64,000 bases of DNA from Octopus vulgaris. Its lineage: Eukaryota. Position numbers and translations under genes: made by a program. Positions 22,271 to 59,220 of this stretch are shown here, piece by piece. The stretch covers positions 54,684,001 through 54,748,000 of the forward strand of contig OX597827.1 in NCBI GenBank assembly GCA_951406725.2. The letters run 5' to 3'. The notes under the pieces are model-generated. The model ran no database searches, had not been told where the DNA came from, and saw only the letters and a program-made list of their open reading frames with translations. The first letter of the stretch is position 1. Every line of letters begins with the position of its first letter.

Positions 22271-25251
22271 GGCTGCCTTCCTGTTATAGTACACAGTTAA
22301 CCACTGTTTTCATTAGCTTTCAAAATCATCAAGAGAAAATATTGATTTCAAATTTTGGCACAAAGCCAGCATGTTCGAGGGGTGCGGTTTGGCAGGAATG
22401 AGTCAATTACATTGACCTCAGTGCTCAACTAGTACTTATTTTATCAACCCTGAAAGGATGAAAGGCAAAGTCAACCTTGATAGAATTTGAACTTAGTACA
22501 TAACGGCAGATGAAATGCCACAAAGCATTTTGCCTATATGCTAACAATTCTACCAGCTTGCAGAATAACATTATCAAACAATATTTGTTCCAAAGTCAGT
22601 CACATGTGTTTAAAAGTTGTCTAACAACAGGTGTTTAACAATGTTATAAAAATTATATATTTTATACAGGTAGTAAAGGGTGTGAGAAAATAATGTGCAA
22701 CTGTATATATTTTGTCTTTCATTCAACTAAATACAGTATTTGTATGTTATCACCAACTCTATGGAAATGTAATAAAGGAAAGGATTAAAGTAACAGGTGT
22801 AAAAATTTCAGTGATAGTGTCTTTATATTTGTGATTCTTTTCACTAAAAAGAAAGTAATCAAGGTAATATTGTGATGCTTCTTGTTTGTAAACTTTCAAA
22901 TTTACATTCAAACTGCTGAATACAAAACTACCAACTGAAGATTCCAGATACAGAGATTTTAAATTTTGACATGGATTTGTTTGTTGGAACATAAAGAACT
23001 AGCAATTTCTTGGAAGCAAGCCACTACTTCAAATGAGAACAGTTATTACTTAACCATTTTACACATAAACTGAGCCTAAAAGATATTAAAAATGACAAGA
23101 TTAATAATCGAAGCATATGTCAGTTCACAGTGCAATCAGTTTGGAAACATTTCCTCTAGCACATACACATTCGAAGTTACCAAAACTTAATGACAACAAG
23201 GAAATACAATGCTGTAACATGTTCTTCTGTTTTCCTCTTGGCTACTAAAACTAAGAATTTCTAAATCACTCACTTTTGCCAATTCAAGTGCCAAAACAAA
23301 ATCATTGCCATTCGTAGATAGCGTCTTATTAGTTGCCAAAAGATAAATTTGGCACAAACTGATTACAATTCCATATGATAAGAGGTGTATTTTCAAATAA
23401 TGTTTCTTTCTTCTTTATTTTTTTCTTTTCATATTCTCAACGTTCTTTGTTCTGTATGTATGGAACATTATTTTTCAAAGCATAACAGAACACCTGTTTT
23501 AAAATCATAAATTTTAAACACTATATGTAATCCAATGAAAAAAAAAACCTAAATATATTATTCTATTCTGAATATTTTCTGATGTTACAAAAATCCATTA
23601 GAATAACTATAGAAGGTTATAAAATTATTGAATATCACAAGATTTCTTTTAAAATATTTTCATTAATGCATTCGAGACATTATCTACAAATACTTTCACA
23701 AATGCATTTAAAACATTATCTACATAATGGAATTCAACAAGAATCTATGAAAGAATTTTACACAATTCCACGTAAGATCCCAGAACAAAGTATTTACAAA
23801 GAAGTAACTTACAAATTACATCACACCTTATTTCCTTGGCCCGAAAATAATCACTGAACCACAATTAGAAGAATAATTATTATATTTCCTAATTTAAATT
23901 TTGCTTATTTTTGTAATCTTTTTCCTAGCAGGAAATAAAATAAGTAAACATATATATATGTATATATATGTATATTAGCTAATGAATTCTTCAACATACA
24001 TGTAACATTTCCTTCAAAATGAAATAAGTTAAATTGATATATATATATATAGAATACAAAAGAAACAATTCTGCCACACGTTTTAATATTCATTATGATT
24101 ACAAGAAGTTACTCATTTCAAATTCACATTCCTTGCACAAATCGGATTGTTCCATCTGGTATTTGGGTGTTTACAGTAGTGAGAAGAAATATGATAAAAA
24201 AAGTAGCACAAGAATGTTTTGTTTGTTCCCGATTCAAAGTTACATGAGAAAGTGAAATAATTCCTACATTTTTACATAAAAGCATTCATTTCAATACTGT
24301 CTTTTATAACTAGAAAAGGATAACATATTCCAAAGGCATGTATGTGAATGTGTATTCACATGTGTGTGTCATATAGAAGTGCACATATATAATACATATA
24401 TATATATATATATATATTTGTATAGAGGCTGTACTGCAAGGCTGACTGAAATTTAATAAAAGGAAAAAATCAGCATCAAGTTTTGTATGTCTACATAACA
24501 CAATAGTGATTCTGTTTATTGTGAGAGAAATACTAATGGATGATTGATATTAACTGTTTGCAATAGAAAGATATCAATCATTAGGAACATGGCTGGAGTT
24601 TGTGGCGTTGGAATTTTCTCTTTATTAACCCCTTAGCTTAAAACTTTTGTAATCATATATCTCTAATGAAATACACTTCCTAATTTTGAAAACAGCCAGT
24701 TAGGAATTTGCTGTAATTTAGTAAATTAATTAACCTTTTTTTTTCTTTAAGTTGTCATTTGGAAAATGTTCACTTCACTGCCATGTGGCTCCATATTCAA
24801 TCCCACTGGCATCTTGAGCAAGTGTTTTCTACTTTATCCTCAGATTGCCCAATGGTTTGTAAGTGAAATTTTCTTCTTGGAAACTGTATGGAAGCTCATC
24901 AGATAGTGTGTATAGATATATAGGCTCTAGTCACAGGCATGGCTTTTATAAAGTTTGGCAACCACATGGCTTTAGGTTCAATTACACTGTATGGCATCTT
25001 AAGTAAGTGGATTTCATTGATGGTGACTGGTATTGTGTGCTAATTGTAAAATGAATATCACTCAAACAGGCAGTGTTGTCTGCAGTCTTCTGTGAAACCA
25101 TGTCCAGCCATTGAACCATTCATGTTTGAGGGGCTTGGAGAACTATTACAGATTCAAGCTGGTGATACGAAGAAAATTCAGCTATGGAAAAAAATCTGCC
25201 TCAATAAATTTCATTTGACTCTGAAAATAGAATAAAGTTCATGTGAATATG

Positions 25252-25323: not shown

Positions 25324-25815
25324 CAAGATGCTGTCTCAGGTGAATTGGTGAGGTAGTCAGTATTACAGTAAACCAAGGGAATGTAAGAATTTCATAGCTT
25401 ACTACACAAGCAATAAACCTATACAATCCCTCAGTAAACACAGAATAATTGTGGACACTGAAAGAGGATAGGCAATCACTGCTGAAATCCATTACACCTG
25501 AATGTGTGATTCTGTAAACAATTTTTTTTTCTTTTCTTTTTGCAACAAATAATACAGTGTTGTATATTTAATGCAATTTTCTTTTGTGTTGTCACCTTAA
25601 TCTCTAAAGATGAATTTTTAAATATTCTATATTTACATCTGTATGACAATTCAATCTCTAGTCATATGTACATAGCACCATACAGGATTTGAATTAGGAA
25701 CCTTTATTTTTAAAATAGTTGTATTAACACTCTCATCTATTGTCCATTATGCTAGTGATGAATGTATATTTAATGTTACATCAATTAAAGTTATCTTTCA
25801 GTAAAGTTAACCATA

Positions 25816-26212
25816 GGTGTAGGAGTGGCTGTGTGGTAAGTAGCTTACTTACGAACCACATGGTTCTGGGTTCAGTCCCACTGTGTGGCACTTTGGACAA
25901 GTGTCTTCTACTATAGCCTCGGGCCGACCAAAGCCTTGTGAGTGGATTTGGTAGACGGAAACTGAAAGAAGCCCATTGTATATATGTATATGTATGTATG
26001 TGTGTGTATATGTTTGTGTGTCTGTGTTTGTCCCCCCAACATCACTTGACAACCGATGGTGGTGTGTTTACGTCCTCGTAACCTAGCAGTTCAGCAAAAG
26101 AGACCGATACTAGGCTTACAAAGAATAAGTCCTGGGGTCAATTTGCTCGACTAAAGGCGGTGCTCCAGCATGGCCACAGTCAAGTGACTGAAACAAGTAA
26201 AAGAGTAAAAGA
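25816..26212 (+). mobile_element. SINE family A, full length, young
   Basis: GGTGTAGGAGTGGCTGTGTGGTAAG...GGGTTCAGTCCC pol III boxes, CORE-like segment, internal microsatellite, GTAAAAGA tail; CpGs retained. Confidence 0.92.
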
Positions 26213-26461: not shown

Positions 26462-26866
26462 CTACTCTTTTTACTCTTTTACTTGTTTCAGTCATTTGAC
26501 TGTGGCCATGCTGGAGCACCGCCTTTAGTCGAGCAAATCAACCCCAGGACTTATTCTTTGTAAGCCTAGTACTTATTCTATCGGTCTCTTTTGCCGAACC
26601 GCTAAGTTACGGCGACGTAAGCACACCAGCATCGGTTGTCAAGGGGACAAACACAGACACACAAACATATACACACACATATACAGATATATATACATAT
26701 ATACAATGGGCTTCTTTCAGTTTCCGTCTACCAAATCCACTCACAAGACTTTGGTCGGCCCGAGGCTATAGTAGAAGACACTTGCCCAAGGTGCCACGCA
26801 GTGGGACTGAACCTGGAACAATGTGGTTGGTAAACAAGCTACTTACCACACAGCCACTCCTACACC
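26462..26866 (-). mobile_element. SINE family A, full length, young
   Basis: Near-identical reverse complement of 25816-26212. Confidence 0.92.
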
Positions 26867-30231: not shown

Positions 30232-30449
30232 CCATGCTAGCATGGAAAGTGGACGCTAAACGATGATGATGATGATGATGATGATGATGATATATAATGG
30301 GCTTCTTTCAGTTTCTGTCTCCCAAATCCATTCACAAGGCTTTGGTCAACCCGAGGCTACAGTAGAAGAAACTTGCCCAAGGTGTTAGTGGGACTGAACC
30401 TGGAACCATGTACTTGGGAAGCGAGCTTCTTACTACACAGCCACACCTG
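29938..30449 (-). mobile_element. SINE family A with a short RTE-tail insertion in its (TA)n
   Basis: Family body; insert CCCATGCTAGCATGGAAAGTGGACGCTAAAC(GAT)n at ~30227-30292. Confidence 0.85.
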
Positions 30450-30450
30450 G

Positions 30451-30550
30451 AACATAGAACGCTTCATAAATTTGTGTGTCGTTCTTTCACAGGAGCCATG
30501 CTAATCTTCTCCGTATCATTCCAATTTTAGTATGTGTTTTGCCTAAACAA
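30451..30550 (-). pseudogene. U6: U6 snRNA retropseudogene, near full length
   Basis: Minus strand reads TTGTTTAGGCAAAACACATACTAAAATTGGAATGATACGGAGAAGATTAGCATGGCTCCTGTGAAAGAACGACACACAAATTTATGAAGCGTTCTATGTT; colinear with metazoan U6 (about 16 substitutions per 100 nt by hand); ACAGAGA box changed to ACGGAGA. Confidence 0.95.
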
Positions 30551-30642
30551 TTTGAGAATCTTTGATAAATTTGAAAAATTGAGCAGATGCATTATCATAT
30601 TGCCATATTACCACCTCTGAATAAGTAAGCTGTTGTGTTAAA

Positions 30643-38238: not shown

Positions 38239-38280
<42 letters not shown>

Positions 38281-38283
<3 letters not shown>

Positions 38284-39037
38284 GAAATATTAAAATTACT
38301 AAGTCTCTCTAAAAGAGAACACGGCTGCGTTCCTGGAAATTAATAGTTATCGCCATACTAATATGGCATTCTTATAAAAATAAGAATAAAGCTGTCCGCT
38401 TATTAGCTCCATGAGGCCATCGCCTTAAGTTAGCTATTTGATACACAAACTGTATCCATATAACCTTCGAACAAGGGAGGTCAGTCGCTCCACACTACTT
38501 GATCGACAGCTACAGACGCGTTTCGGGGTATTGCCCCTTGTCAATGTAGCGTAGTCAGACCAGTAGGTGTCGCTTCCGACTATCTCTGTTCGAAGGTTTT
38601 ATTTACCTAGTTTCGGTGGAATACATCCACTTGTTTTCAATAATAGAAATATTAAAATTACTAAGTCTCTCTAAAAGAGAACACGGCAGCGTTCCTGGAA
38701 ATTAATAGTTATCGCCATACTAATATGGCATTCTTATAAAAATAAGAATAAAGCTGTCCGCTTATTAGCTCCATGAGGCCATCGCCTTAAGTTAGCTATT
38801 TGATACACAAACTGTATCCATATAACCTTCGATCAAGTAGTGTGGAGCGACTGACCTCCCTTGTTCGAAGGTAATTTTAATTAGAGACTTAGTAATTTTA
38901 ATATGGATACAGTTTGTGTATTTTAATATGGATACAGTTTGTGTATCAAATAGCTAACTTAAGGCGATGGCCTCATGGAGCTAATAAGCGGACAGCTTTA
39001 TTCTTATTTTTATAAGAATGCCATATTAGTGTGGCGA

Positions 39038-39043
<6 letters not shown>
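38281..39043 (-). mobile_element. Young Penelope-pLTR/retrozyme-like insertion: 362-bp unit x ~1.5 plus inverted fragments, in the (TA)n of a family A SINE
   Basis: 38281-38470 recurs at 38643-38832 with one mismatch seen; 38829-39043 is a mosaic of reverse-complement pieces of the unit; (TA)n on both sides; contains a hammerhead. Confidence 0.85.
38509..38550 (-). ncRNA. Minimal type I hammerhead ribozyme, U3-A8 core variant
   Basis: Minus strand GCUACA-UUGACAA-GGGG(CAAUA)CCCC-GAAA-CGCG-UC-UGUAGC: 6-bp stem I, 4-bp stem II, palindromic ACGCGU stem III, GUC cleavage triplet. Confidence 0.88.
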
Positions 39044-39083
<40 letters not shown>

Positions 39084-40519
39084 ACTGGCTTCTGTATAGT
39101 TTCCATCTGCCAAATTTATTCACACCGCATTGGTTAGTAGCATGGTGTTAGTAGCATAGTGTTATTTATATTGGTTTTAAATTTTGGCACAAATCCAGCA
39201 ACTTCAGGGAAGGGTGTAAGTCCATTACTTTCACCCCAGTACTCAACTGGTACTTATTTTATCACCCCTGAAAGGATAAAAGATAAAGTTGACCTTGGCG
39301 GAATTTGAACTCAGAAAGTAAAGACAGATGAAATGCCACTAAGTATTTTGACCTTGTGCTCACCACTGCCTTTGTGTTATTTATAATGATAATGCTTCAG
39401 GTAAAACAGTAACCAACATCAACTTCACCTTCTCACCTTTGGATTTATATTTATGTTAATCTGATAAACTCTTTCGTTTATTTCTCTCAAGTGAATGTGA
39501 AATGTTTGAGTTATAATCTGTGGCATCCACCAAATTTTTGATTCACTTTACCAAATTCCTTACCGATTATCCTGCCCCATATCTTCTTCAAAGGTTAGCT
39601 TTGATGATGGTACCTCACTATGACCACAGTTCACTGGCTGAAACCACTAAAATAACATGATAGCCAAGCAGTTTAGCTAAAAGGAGATTTTTCATTCATT
39701 CTGTCAAATGTAAGGCTTATTTATTCACATTGTTTTGAATTGATCAAGCGTTATCTCATAGCTTTGAGATTTCAATGATGTAATTATTTCTTTTCAGAAT
39801 GACATTATAGGGTAGATGTGAAAGGTTAGATCTGGTCAGTCTGATTAAAGAATAGGTAAAATGTTAGGGCTGCATATTATTTTACACAACTCAATCTAGA
39901 CCTAAGCACTTGACTTTATAAAATCTACATTTGTAGACACCATTGCCATAACTACATGTTTGTATTTTGTTACAGAGTATCTTTCACTATAATTAACAAA
40001 GTGTGAAGGAAAATAAGTTGATGTAAAAAGTTTACAAATATGAATTTTTTACACTGGGATAAAGGTATAAATTTCAAGAGAAGGGTTGATTAAATTGATT
40101 CCAGTACTTGACTGATACTTTATTTTATCAATTCCCAAAGAATGGAAAGCAAATGACCTCAATGGAATTCAAACTTAGAATATAAAGCACCAGAACAAAT
40201 ACTCTAAGGAATTTTGTCTTCTGATTCTACCAATCCACTGAGGAAATCATTGTCAATATGAATAAAGCTTATATGTATTGGGAAGACGAGAGTTCAAACA
40301 GAGGCCTCTTTCTAAATAAGGGCTTTTCTCAAAACATTAAAAGTTCTCCTCATGACAAATATATTTGCAAACTTTATAACAAGGCTTTTACCAAAGAGGC
40401 CATTATTAGTTTTTTTGGACCCTTGTTTTATTTTGATTGAGCTAGAACATTTATTTGAGTGATCTTCTAGATCTAAACTAATCGCTTATTAGTGTGGCTG
40501 GCATTTGACAATGTGAAGT

Positions 40520-43036: not shown

Positions 43037-43264
43037 TTAACCACTTAGCATTTAGATTACTTTGTTAAATGTAATACTTATTTATTCACATTGTTTTGAA
43101 TTAATCATGAATTATCTTGTAGCTTTGAGATTTCAATAATGTGATCGTTTATTTTTACAATGACATTGTAGAGTAGGTGTGAGAGGTCAGATCTGGTCAG
43201 TTTGAACATAAAACAGGTAGAATATTTGAACCGGTTATGGTTAGTTTAAATGCTAAAGGGTTAT
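43037..43264. mobile_element. piggyBac-type MITE family D nested in an older repeat
   Basis: TTAACCACTTAGCATT ... AATGCTAAAGGGTTAT. Confidence 0.85.
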
Positions 43265-54191: not shown

Positions 54192-54848
54192 TAAATATTT
54201 TCTTCCACTCCCTCTGTCTGTCTGTCTGTCTCTCTCTCTCTTTCTACCCAAACCATCCTTCTCTATAATTTCTTTTGAAATTATAATGCAATCATAGTTT
54301 CTATATTAGAAAAAAATACAATTAATTATAGGTGTGTATGTGTGATGTTTTGTGAGAGAATAGATCTGTTAGCTTATTGTCATATCCAGATAGTTGTTTA
54401 TCACAAGCAATTTCTTTTTAAATCAATTTTATCATCTATAATGGTTTTTCAATACTCATAAGACAATAACAGTTTTTAATGATTAAAAGAAAATGAAATG
54501 TATTTAAAGAATGTGTTGTTGTTTAACCCCAGGACAGCTCTGAGTCTGCATAAAGATATCCTACACATGAACATCCTATCAACGTTTTGCAATCAGTCCT
54601 TCCTGTTTTAAGACGACAGTAACTTGAAGGAGATTTAGCTGCAGGTTCAATGTTCTACCTCATCAATGCTATGACTTGGACTTTTATCCGGGGGGGGGGG
54701 GGGGCAATAAAATGAAGTATCAGTCAAATACTGGAATCAGTATAACTGACTATTCCCTCTCACTAAATTTTTGGCCTTGTGCTTCTGTTAGAAATTATTA
54801 TCTTTATATTGCCTTTGGATTCATTTCTGCCACTTTTCTGGCAATAAC

Positions 54849-55080
54849 TATTTCTTTATTACCCACAAGGGGACAAACACAGAGGGGACAAACAAGGACA
54901 GACAAACGGATTAAGTCGATTACATCGACCCCAGTGCGTAACTGGTACTTAATTTATCGACCCCGAAAGGATGAAAGGCAAAGTTGACCTCAGTGGAATT
55001 TGAACTCAGAACATAACGGCAGACGAAATACGGCTATGCATTTCACCCGGCATGCTAACGTTTCTGCCAGCTCAACGCCT
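54849..55080 (-). mobile_element. SINE family C
   Basis: TSD CTGGCAATAAC (54838-48, 55087-97). Confidence 0.9.
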
Positions 55081-56887: not shown

Positions 56888-59220
56888 CTAGGCATCTTCA
56901 ATGTACATAATATTGGTGACATTGTTTGATATTGTCACTATACTTGCTGCATCACCCTGAGTAGTTCTTAACACAGTTAAATACACTTGTCCACGAGGAG
57001 ATGGATCAGTTGGGAAGAATAGAAATATTTTATTCAATGACTGGTATTATGATTTATTGACTGTTATTGCAATAGCCATTTTGAGCTGGAAGCTGTAATT
57101 GTGTTAGTGTAAATAATAGAATGGTGTCAGAATGTCTTAGTTAATTCTTGGTACAATGATGTTTTCTATAATCTTCACCTTCAGTAACAATATTGCCTTC
57201 AATCTTCATTCATATAAATGGGTTATTTGAATTATTCTTCCATTACAAAATCCATTAGACTTATTTAAACTCCACAACAACATTACAACACATCCCTTTT
57301 ACAAGATTAATGTTAAGTGGGTCGGTCGGGGGGAGGGGGAGGGGACACTCCATCAAAGTTACAGCTATTTAAGGAACTTCGTTGAATAATTGTATAGGTA
57401 GTCTTTATCATTGCAGGAGTATAGTTGCTTTTTGTAAGTAACAATTTCTTCATTATAGAATTTACAACACCATTGTTAGGAGTTGTGAAGCTTGAAAGAT
57501 CTAAAGGACTACAGTTAATTTGATTTGTCATTTCATATTCATCCAACGCTATTTGAAAACTCAGTCTAGCAACCCATCCAGTTGCTTCCTCCCCTCACAC
57601 AAAGCAGAAAATAAATCAGCCACGGTCCTTTAGTTCTGTACTTGCATATTCATGATTAACTTCAGTTTCACCATTCTCTCTTAAAAGGAAGAATGGAGCA
57701 ACTTTGTCCTCAGTAGCTGCTCCACCAAACATTCTGTAAGCTAAGAAGTGTAAATAAAAATTGCTTAGAAAGTCCATGATGTTCCTGTCATAAAGGCCAC
57801 AAAATATACAATCGAGTTTCATATACATACATATGTACATCTCAATATTTGTGGTGTTCTGTGCCAACACATAAAATGACAACCTTGAATTAACTTTTAC
57901 CAGTTTGCTGTTATCATCAATTTTCCAAACAAAATTTTTTGAGCAGAAACTGGAATATGGAAAGTTGAAAGAACTGAAGAACCACTTTTGTAGAACTTCA
58001 GATTGTTCTGTAAATCTGTGAGAACGGTTTGATCTAGACATGCTTCAACATCCTCTATATGTAATCTGTTGAAATAGTGTGTCTTTCTGGAGTCATCAGG
58101 ACAATCAACAGAGAAAATACATGAACTTGTTGCTCTGTGAAGCATCCATTAATCATTAGCATTTAAACCAACTAAATCTGGACCGAATATTCTTTTTACT
58201 GTTTTGCGTTCAATCCAGTCAGATCTGGCCTTTCATAATTACACCAAAATGTAATTCTAAAAATCAGCGACCACATCATTAAAATCTTGAAGCTATGAAT
58301 TTAACCATATGCATGGTTAAATTCAAAACAATATGAATAGCTAAGCATTTCATTTGATAGAGTAATGCTAAAGGGTTAAGGTATCAAAAGTATTTGTTGC
58401 ACTTGGCTCAATTGTTTTCTTTGTGTGTGTGTGTGTGTGTGTCCATGTGCATGCAAGCACTTTGTTTCTTTTCCAGTTGTCGTCAGCAGTGTCAAAAATT
58501 TATGTATCTGCTGAAGACAACTCAAAGATGAGCTGCTGAAGGAACGTTCCACTTTGAAGGCAGAAAGTTTATAAAAAGTCTGAGATAGTATGCTTGTCTA
58601 ACATTTTTATTATCTATAAGGATGCTGCCGTTGATGATCTGCCATAAACAATTTGTGATTTTTAAAAAATTCTTATTGATCTGAGATTCCACATAACAGC
58701 AATACTGAAATTCACAGATTTTAAAATTGAGGTGCAGAACAGATTCCAAATTCATAAAAAAAATTGATGTCCCTATCAAATTAATCATCAGACTCCATAA
58801 TGTCTATATTTGAAGTTGCATCTTTGAATGTTTAGCATTACTGTCTACAACAGTTTACAGTTCCTGAAATGATCGCGCCCTAGATTCTTGCATTGTAAAA
58901 TTAACTTTTAGAATTTCGAACAGCGACAGCTTATTCTTTCATTTGATGTTCCTATCACATAAGCCATCAAACTCCATGACATCTATATTTGAAGTGGCAT
59001 CTTTGTGTGTCTGATATTACTGTCCACAACAATTTTCAGTTCCTGAAATGAGCTTGCACTAGATTTCACATTGTAAAGTCATCTTTTAGAATTCCAAGCA
59101 TCGGCAGTTTATTCTCCCATTTGACAACCTACATTTTCTCTTTGTGACTTCATTAGTCCACACCAAGTGCTTTCATCCATGTTGGAATTCTTGAATTGCT
59201 ACCGCTTTGTATTCTTCATG
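56888..59220 (-). pseudogene. Decayed Helitron RepHel gene (linker plus Pif1 helicase)
   Basis: Motifs in the expected order across stops and frameshifts: ARSFQELxTVVD (GATSFEDLRTV), IFSVDCPDDSRKTHYFNRL (Walker A, FFIDGPGGTGKTFLYN), SSVLSTFHIP (TAHSxFKIP), RMFGG (PFGG), TPNNGVVNSI, LNSCNFDG-PP, GCVVMLLWSLNKSNGFCNG, IIVPRI, MAIAITVNKS*YQSL (AFAMTINKSQGQTL), RGQVYLTVLR (HGQLYVALSR), TNIMYIEDA*. Confidence 0.88.
58156..58379. mobile_element. piggyBac-type MITE family D inside the Helitron fossil
   Basis: Family body; right end AATGCTAAAGGG-TTAA. Confidence 0.8.

Follow-up and report, generated by a model that had tools for sequence, protein, structure and literature searches.

A two-armed insertion of a 362-nt repeat with a predicted hammerhead ribozyme between TA runs of Octopus vulgaris

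Anatomy of the insertion

The window analysed here, a 64-kb stretch of Octopus vulgaris DNA, is AT-rich (34.6% G+C), contains no N, and abounds in microsatellites and dispersed short repeats. Self-comparison identifies a single two-armed copy of a 362-nt unit at 38281-39041, 761 bp long and flanked on both sides by (TA)n. A (TA)20 microsatellite lies to its left (38241-38280) and a (TA)19.5 microsatellite to its right (39042-39080), and these are presumed to be the left and right halves of the target. The 362-nt copy is isolated within the window, and the self-comparison reveals no LTR-type layout at the locus. A target-site duplication is not visible and would be indistinguishable inside (TA)n, as has likewise been described for Penelope-like elements (PLEs) in PMC8557442. 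An earlier, sequence-only reading had placed the element at 38281-38832. This extent is too short: an inverted arm adds 209 bp and carries the insert to 39041. That reading had overlooked the inverted arm, the (TA)n at both ends, the presence of a single hammerhead, and the unusual U3-A8 core of the latter.

The left arm extends inward from the left TA run over 552 bp or 1.52 units. It consists of one full unit of 362 nt (38281-38642; 40% G+C, without an ORF, with extensive self-pairing and with its RNA sense on the minus strand) and of a partial second unit of 190 bp (38643-38832, minus strand), which ends 9 nt inside a 12-bp stem and before the hammerhead. The claimed period of 362 bp is confirmed: 38281-38470 and 38643-38832 differ by a single mismatch at 38326 in 190 bp, and a period of 362 yields 237 matches in 400 positions versus a background of 98-121 in 400 for the other periods between 355 and 369. 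The outermost 62 nt of the left arm (38281-38342, minus strand) are missing from the outer end of the right arm, and by analogy to the tails described in PMC8557442 and PMC11167929 this stretch may be tail-like.

The right arm comprises 209 bp, is inverted, and has its outer start 62 nt further into the unit than the left arm. In the self-comparison, inverted unit sequence covers 38829-39044. The main body of the arm (38926-39044, plus strand) corresponds to unit positions 38343-38461 with one mismatch at 39031. Further inward, four short inverted pieces form a mosaic (38871-38929, plus strand; unit 38287-38296, 38441-38461, 38287-38308, and 38289-38299) that includes a 25-bp tandem duplication, and the inner end is built from a piece of unit 38463-38506 (38829-38872, plus strand). 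In this order, inward from the right TA run, the arm is composed of six pieces that all have the same polarity, with overlaps of 2-4 nt at four of the five joints and a single extra base at the remaining one. The two arms are joined head-to-head at TCGA (38829-38832), a palindromic microhomology of 4 nt common to both arm ends. Both arms open with ATAG beside the TA run, at unit points that are 62 nt apart, and both are complementary to the hammerhead-bearing minus strand, as expected of cDNAs. A match to the Rfam model MIR841 (E-value 9e-10, 52.5 bits versus a gathering score of 200) was rejected as a mere reflection of the inverted arms.

Elsewhere in the window, a diverged full-length copy of the U6 snRNA with several substitutions is found at 30448-30551 on the minus strand (74.5 bits). 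It represents the only Rfam match in the window at the gathering score and is likely a pseudogene. In addition, there are at least three families of dispersed repeats of 120-230 bp, which may be SINE-like, on both strands and with 60-92% likeness (for example at 22331-22560, 25815-26019, 26651-26866, 39219-39363, 43037-43263, and 54844-55073), and an old tandem duplication of a 179-bp unit with 79% matches at 58764-59124.

The 362-nt unit and its predicted hammerhead

The unit has no coding capacity, as had been stated before. Treated as a circle and read on both strands, its longest stop-to-stop frame has 54 codons and its longest ATG frame 21. The strong structure attributed to it was recovered as well. 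The unit folds far better than its shuffled versions on the minus (z -7.0) and plus (z -6.5) strands, and the circularised minus strand reaches -116 kcal/mol (z -7.3). The 12-bp stem is perfect, with 38462-38473 being the exact reverse complement of 38587-38598, and the four further hairpins that had been proposed, GCCATA/TATGGC, GATACA/TGTATC, and GTGGA/TCCAC among them, are all present. The 12-bp stem closes a long imperfect rod (38459-38602, minus strand, z -6.85), which extends stem I of the hammerhead, and the two termini of the unit are base-paired in the predicted fold. A scan for promoters and terminators was discarded, as its models are bacterial and irrelevant to this organism, and it returned only the hairpins already known.

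A type I hammerhead is predicted at 38509-38550 on the minus strand (read from 38550 to 38509). It is the only match of the descriptor on both strands of the 64 kb; in 40 shuffled windows the descriptor produced one match, and none at the stringency of the hammerhead itself. The motif is built from a 6-bp stem I, a 4-bp G-C stem II with a 5-nt loop, the GAAA, and a palindromic stem III (ACGCGU). In the position numbering that we assume for 38509-38550, the core UUGACAA reads U3 U4 G5 A6 C7 A8 A9, followed by G12-A15.1, U16.1, and C17. Thus, the C3-G8 pair is replaced by U3-A8, and the features of a type I core are all found (3-8 pair, GAAA, A15.1-U16.1, non-G at position 17). The predicted cut would fall after C17, between 38515 and 38514. 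There is one hammerhead at the locus and in the whole window, because the second copy of the unit stops 39 nt before it would have reached the motif.

In the predicted fold, the pairs of stem I have probabilities of 0.89-1.0 and those of stem II of 0.97-0.98, and stem I is open-ended. Within a monomer, the A15.1-U16.1 pair of stem III has a probability of 0.0, and the active fold lies 7.1 kcal/mol above the minimum, while the duplex of the stem III palindromes of two copies is computed at -7.5 kcal/mol. Dimeric hammerheads have reportedly been found in PLEs by Lunse et al. The modelled behaviour of stem III would be that expected of a dimer-type motif (PMC6765202), a design that has been described for animals (PMC6765202; PMC7229834).

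The Rfam models do not report a hammerhead at the locus, neither at the gathering score nor at E-values up to 10, and a family with a U3-A8 core also escapes the standard CUGANGA descriptors. The 23-nt hammerhead pattern had no match in metagenome contigs and none in viral contigs. The U3-A8 swap itself has been seen before in PLE hammerheads of Schistosoma (PMC4209133), and U3-A8 cores are natural and active in vitro (PMC3088659, Perreault et al. 2011). Position N7 (38540) is a C in the window copy and an A in most copies of the family (63-95% of the depth in four runs). With C7, the predicted fold of the window copy allows a competing 3-bp helix (probability 0.6) by which the core is masked; the common A7 would be expected to weaken this helix. 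The window copy is damaged and not the most suitable one for bench work.

Copies of the family in public sequencing runs

Part of the stretch is present in 20 of the 24 public sequencing runs listed, and at least half of its words are present in 16; the runs derive from 11 studies and carry four organism labels. Runs X2, X4-X10, X12-X17, X19, and X20 contain fractions of 0.43-0.86 of its words. The contigs of the four runs X1, X3, X11, and X18 were aligned to the monomer unit, to which 3,934 contigs of X1 and 1,853 of X3 could be assigned. X11 contributed 41 contigs and X18 contributed 15. None of the runs containing the stretch is recorded as RNA, X11 and X18 are guessed to be so, and their contigs carry no weight here as to expression. 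The summed depth in X1 and X3 amounts to 0.14-1.37 million in most bins, compared with 22-97 for single rearrangement joints. Summed depth does not equal copy number, and overlapping short contigs may, as we infer, inflate it up to about thirty-fold. Therefore, the copy number is only given as a minimum of hundreds, although thousands to tens of thousands of copies are plausible.

Head-to-tail joins leading from 38632-38642 to 38281-38284 account for 11 of the 12 junctions listed (12 of 16), three of them from X1, eight from X3, and none from X11 or X18. Because the head-to-tail junction appears in both X1 and X3, it is a feature of the family. The listed joins are variants of it, and the exact junction of the window is absent among the joints listed. 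Opposite-strand joints make up three of the eight joint entries. One contig of X11 starts at 38344 directly after (TA)n and one of X18, from a different study, at 38340, both near the start of the right arm (38343). A clean depth step at this second start was not found in the bins, those of 38281-38319 being as deep as those beyond 38346, and the comparison is confounded by the divergent stretch 38319-38340. X11 and X18, which belong to two studies, also share a junction at which the unit ends at 38473 and is followed by (TA)n and unique DNA. Position 38473 is the top of the 12-bp stem, and this represents another copy ending at that stem.

The window copy belongs to a minor subfamily and has minority letters at 38503, 38506, 38540, and 38581; its letter at 38326 is nearly private. 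The depth of X1 drops 10- to 100-fold in the bins 38554-38579 and 38632-38642, where X3 stays high, so that organism labels A and B do not have the same dominant subfamily. Two contigs of X1 have about 134 unrelated letters ahead of 38583, and one 725-nt contig of X18 matches 38599-38640 and then continues for about 600 letters. These extensions are possible links to a longer parent element.

Only two of the 40 variants listed (of 51), which are distributed over 35 places, fall into the hammerhead (38509-38550), namely one at the free core position N7 and one wobble in stem I. None of those listed affects the other 29 bases of the core and stems II-III (p ~0.05). In the rod, the pair is kept or restored in 11 of the 14 paired-site variants listed (p 0.03 against a null of 50%), a count in which compensated cases are scored as kept and in which the phase is mostly not known; the covariation would thus lend modest support to the rod. 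Outside the rod, the drawn pair is kept in just three of the ten listed paired-site variants, and the small hairpins near 38305-38332 are therefore unsupported as drawn. The mismatch of the right arm at unit position 38356 (A to G in RNA sense) was considered as an RNA edit fixed from one template, an idea left unsupported because both copies in the left arm keep the common letter. Among the variants in general, T>C changes (A to G in RNA sense) exceed A>G changes by 6:3, 7:3, 10:4, and 10:3 in the four non-independent runs. Such an excess could reflect A-to-I editing fixed by retrotransposition, but the changes are unpolarised.

Origin of the copy and its known relatives

Insertions of EN+ PLEs are described as having a partial tandem, an adjacent inverted truncated copy, a one-sided tail, and a bias for (TA)n (PMC8557442). 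At the locus, a microsatellite target contains a partial tandem with a truncated, inverted copy next to it, and the one-sided extension has 62 nt compared to the 30-40 bp of the tails in print. PAc has been reported to cut and extend both strands of AT-rich DNA in vitro, with two internal start sites of reverse transcriptase (RT) defining the tail (PMC11167929, Frangieh et al. 2024). Hammerhead cleavage was unnecessary for insertion in PAc, one PLE tested in vitro (PMC11167929). Young Penelope-like copies have been reported from Octopus vulgaris (PMC13282606). We consider it probable that a Penelope-like endonuclease and RT wrote the insert into (TA)n as a copy of an abundant 362-nt repeat, which encodes no protein and carries a predicted type I hammerhead. 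At this locus, the unit does not stand beside an autonomous Penelope ORF, a configuration that would have made it an ordinary pseudo-LTR (pLTR): (TA)n closes the insert, no Pfam match to RT or GIY-YIG was obtained among the 150 longest of the 246 frames of at least 55 aa in the window, and the arrangement of an autonomous element, with an RT and GIY-YIG ORF between or beside the repeats, was not seen at the locus. Four weak Pfam matches among these 150 frames, below the curated cut-offs, were taken as chance. A PLE partner of the unit was not identified within the window.

The geometry can be translated into a sequence of events. Source arrays of at least two units elsewhere in the genome would be transcribed, and their hammerheads would pair via the palindromic stem III. 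The paired hammerheads may excise monomers, which would then be ligated into circles. A Penelope-type protein would nick both strands of a TA run, and each of the two ends would prime a cDNA that begins at its own internal site of the template RNA. The left cDNA would have run for 1.52 units, past the cleavage site and the unit junction, with a circle and an uncut tandem RNA being about equally probable as its template. Since the left arm crosses the predicted cleavage site as well as the unit junction, a plain cleaved linear monomer cannot have been the template, barring a jump. The proposal that the greater-than-unit copy derives from a circular or tandem RNA is thus supported by these crossings, although they do not distinguish the two. 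On its second pass, the left cDNA would have ended 9 nt into the 12-bp stem. The right cDNA may have stalled at the foot of the same stem, twice leaving the template at 38461, hopped five times among sites of the same polarity, copied tail sequence from behind its start point, and taken up the template again at 38463. Finally, the two cDNAs would have been joined by the TCGA microhomology. The mosaic of the right arm, at this one locus, looks like the result of a polymerase that stalls at structure and changes sites along a minus-sense template. A proximity of the hop sites in the folded RNA was considered and rejected, because 29-53% of positions lie at least as near. Eight nucleotides separate the end of the right arm (38506) from the predicted cleavage site (38514). 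In this one case, the arm could have reached the end of a cleaved RNA and then been trimmed back to the TCGA overlap.

More tentatively, the locus might be read as preserving a single event in which one Penelope-type enzyme copied one RNA circle, made by the ribozyme, simultaneously from both cut DNA ends, with one cDNA completing more than a lap and the other hopping five times, twice into the tail, and resuming two bases further on. If this were true, the inner junctions of the family would map the pause sites of the RT on a retrozyme circle in vivo, and the step from circle to genome, which has so far only been proposed, would become directly testable.

The two differences in 607 duplicated bases give an age of about 0.9 Myr (0.1-3.3), calculated with a borrowed clock (0.09 per 25 Myr in Octopus vulgaris, PMC13282606) and with the reservation that some of the differences may be copying or assembly errors. 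The high identity had been taken to mean recent activity; the insertion is indeed young, at about 0.1-3.3 Myr, but present activity does not follow from this. Similarly, the interpretation as a retrozyme or Penelope-mobilised RNA gains from the inverted arm, the (TA)n, the recurrent junction, and the lack of a local PLE ORF, but does not extend to an active retrozyme. The latter is defined by two hammerheads (bioRxiv 10.64898/2026.07.22.740005), and with only one the present copy falls into the monomer or solo class. Because two cleavage sites are needed and one is present, this copy would not by itself release a unit-length RNA. Judged from its sequence, the copy would be a dead-end product from which no circles arise, and any circle of the kind that had been proposed would have to originate at other loci. 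The best reading of the locus is an offspring of an animal non-LTR retrozyme, that is, of a non-autonomous Penelope derivative.

The same geometry would be left by ordinary debris of an autonomous PLE, in which the 362 bp would represent the pseudo-LTR or 3' end and the locus two 5'-truncated tandem copies and one inverted copy (PMC8557442). The first reports of U3-A8 hammerheads concerned PLE pLTRs, in which the motif mostly occurred singly, and pairs of hammerheads on opposite strands 100-700 bp apart are on record (PMC4209133). The young Penelope-like copies of Octopus vulgaris (PMC13282606) and the X18 contig that continues beyond 38640 would fit as well. We nevertheless regard this origin as unlikely. 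Random truncation would produce a different junction at each locus, but the 5' boundary at 38642 reappears, joined head-to-tail, in many contigs of two runs. In addition, the ends of the unit pair mutually in the fold, the helices have the canonical 6 and 4 bp of retrozymes, whereas helix II is long in minimal PLE motifs (PMC4209133), the 150 frames searched in the window contain no match to RT or endonuclease, and the supplementary file of Craig et al. (PMC8557442) has no match to three hammerhead motifs taken from the unit.

Still less probable is a satellite-like unit with a vestigial hammerhead that was spread and rearranged at the DNA level, by unequal exchange and by microhomology-mediated repair with templated insertions. 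End-joining repair also leaves short templated pieces with overlaps of 2-4 nt, and the joints of the right arm resemble such scars. Local amplification of the pLTR by unequal crossover, once in place, has been suggested by Li et al. However, the six pieces of the right arm share one polarity, both outer ends begin with ATAG immediately at (TA)n, no further copy occurs in the 64 kb, and the listed variants spare the catalytic core. The least probable explanation is an error of the assembly, in which the collapse of a high-copy repeat would have created the partial duplication or the inverted mosaic: tandem and inverted structures of the PLE type do trouble assemblies (PMC8557442), but the window contains no N, opposite-strand and head-to-tail joints are found in independent runs, and the copies in the left arm share minority letters at 38319, 38320, 38334, and 38340 while differing at 38326, a pattern that collapsing random copies would not produce.

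The gain over published work is incremental, as the class, its link to Penelope, and the U3-A8 core are already in print. PLEs have been proposed as carriers of retrozymes by Cervera and de la Pena, and retrozymes have been argued to be non-autonomous derivatives of PLEs (bioRxiv 10.64898/2026.07.22.740005). The published link rests on shared hammerheads, co-occurrence, and pLTR similarity; insertions such as the present one put the Penelope footprint on a non-coding unit, with concrete start and stall sites. We found no description of a cephalopod retrozyme in the literature, although cephalopod or U3-A8 ones might be listed in the supplementary data of PMC7229834 or bioRxiv 10.64898/2026.07.22.740005, and the terms ribozyme, hammerhead, and retrozyme do not occur in the 2026 octopus repeat paper (PMC13282606).

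The closest known relatives are the metazoan non-LTR retrozymes (Cervera and de la Pena 2020, PMC7229834), especially the 350-390-bp repeats of mussels and the axolotl Rtz_331 with HHR_Amex1. The family has the sequence features of this group for which it was tested, namely size, G+C content, lack of an ORF, self-pairing, head-to-tail arrangement, and many copies. Like these retrozymes, it has a unit within 150-450 bp and of the size found in molluscs, a G+C content below 50%, and a type I hammerhead with helices of 6 and 4 bp, and as in HHR_Amex1 the predicted helix III has one pair and is capped by a palindromic tetraloop. Unlike the retrozymes as described there, it has a U3-A8 core, a single hammerhead in the copy, and a two-armed insertion in (TA)n, and it is known here from sequence alone. 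The non-autonomous PLE derivatives of Li, Clavereau and Pollet (2026, bioRxiv 10.64898/2026.07.22.740005) are similar in being retrozyme-like units tied to Penelope machinery, in their head-to-tail organisation, and in having dispersed monomer copies that represent offspring unable to transpose; eight of the nine Xenopus dimers in that work did not cleave. That survey covered 31 vertebrates, three insects, and one coral and linked the units to PLEs by co-occurrence and pLTR similarity, whereas the link is drawn here from insertion geometry. Non-autonomous Chlamys elements such as MRC1 (PMC8557442) form a comparable PLE-derived class.

With the hammerheads of PLE pseudo-LTRs, including the U3-A8 variant of Schistosoma mansoni (Cervera and de la Pena 2014, PMC4209133), the motif shares the covariation of U3 and A8, palindromic positions around helix III, the G10.1-C11.1 pair, and the predicted need for a dimer. 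As an insertion, the copy resembles those of EN+ PLEs (Craig et al. 2021, PMC8557442; PAc, PMC11167929) in the partial tandem, the adjacent inverted 5'-truncated copy, the extension at one end, the AT-rich or (TA)n target, and the two internal start points. It differs from these in being non-coding, in the 62 nt of its extension compared to 30-40, and in the multi-hop mosaic at its inner junction. While PAc starts without homology (PMC11167929), the start sites of the octopus copy share ATAG with the TA target.
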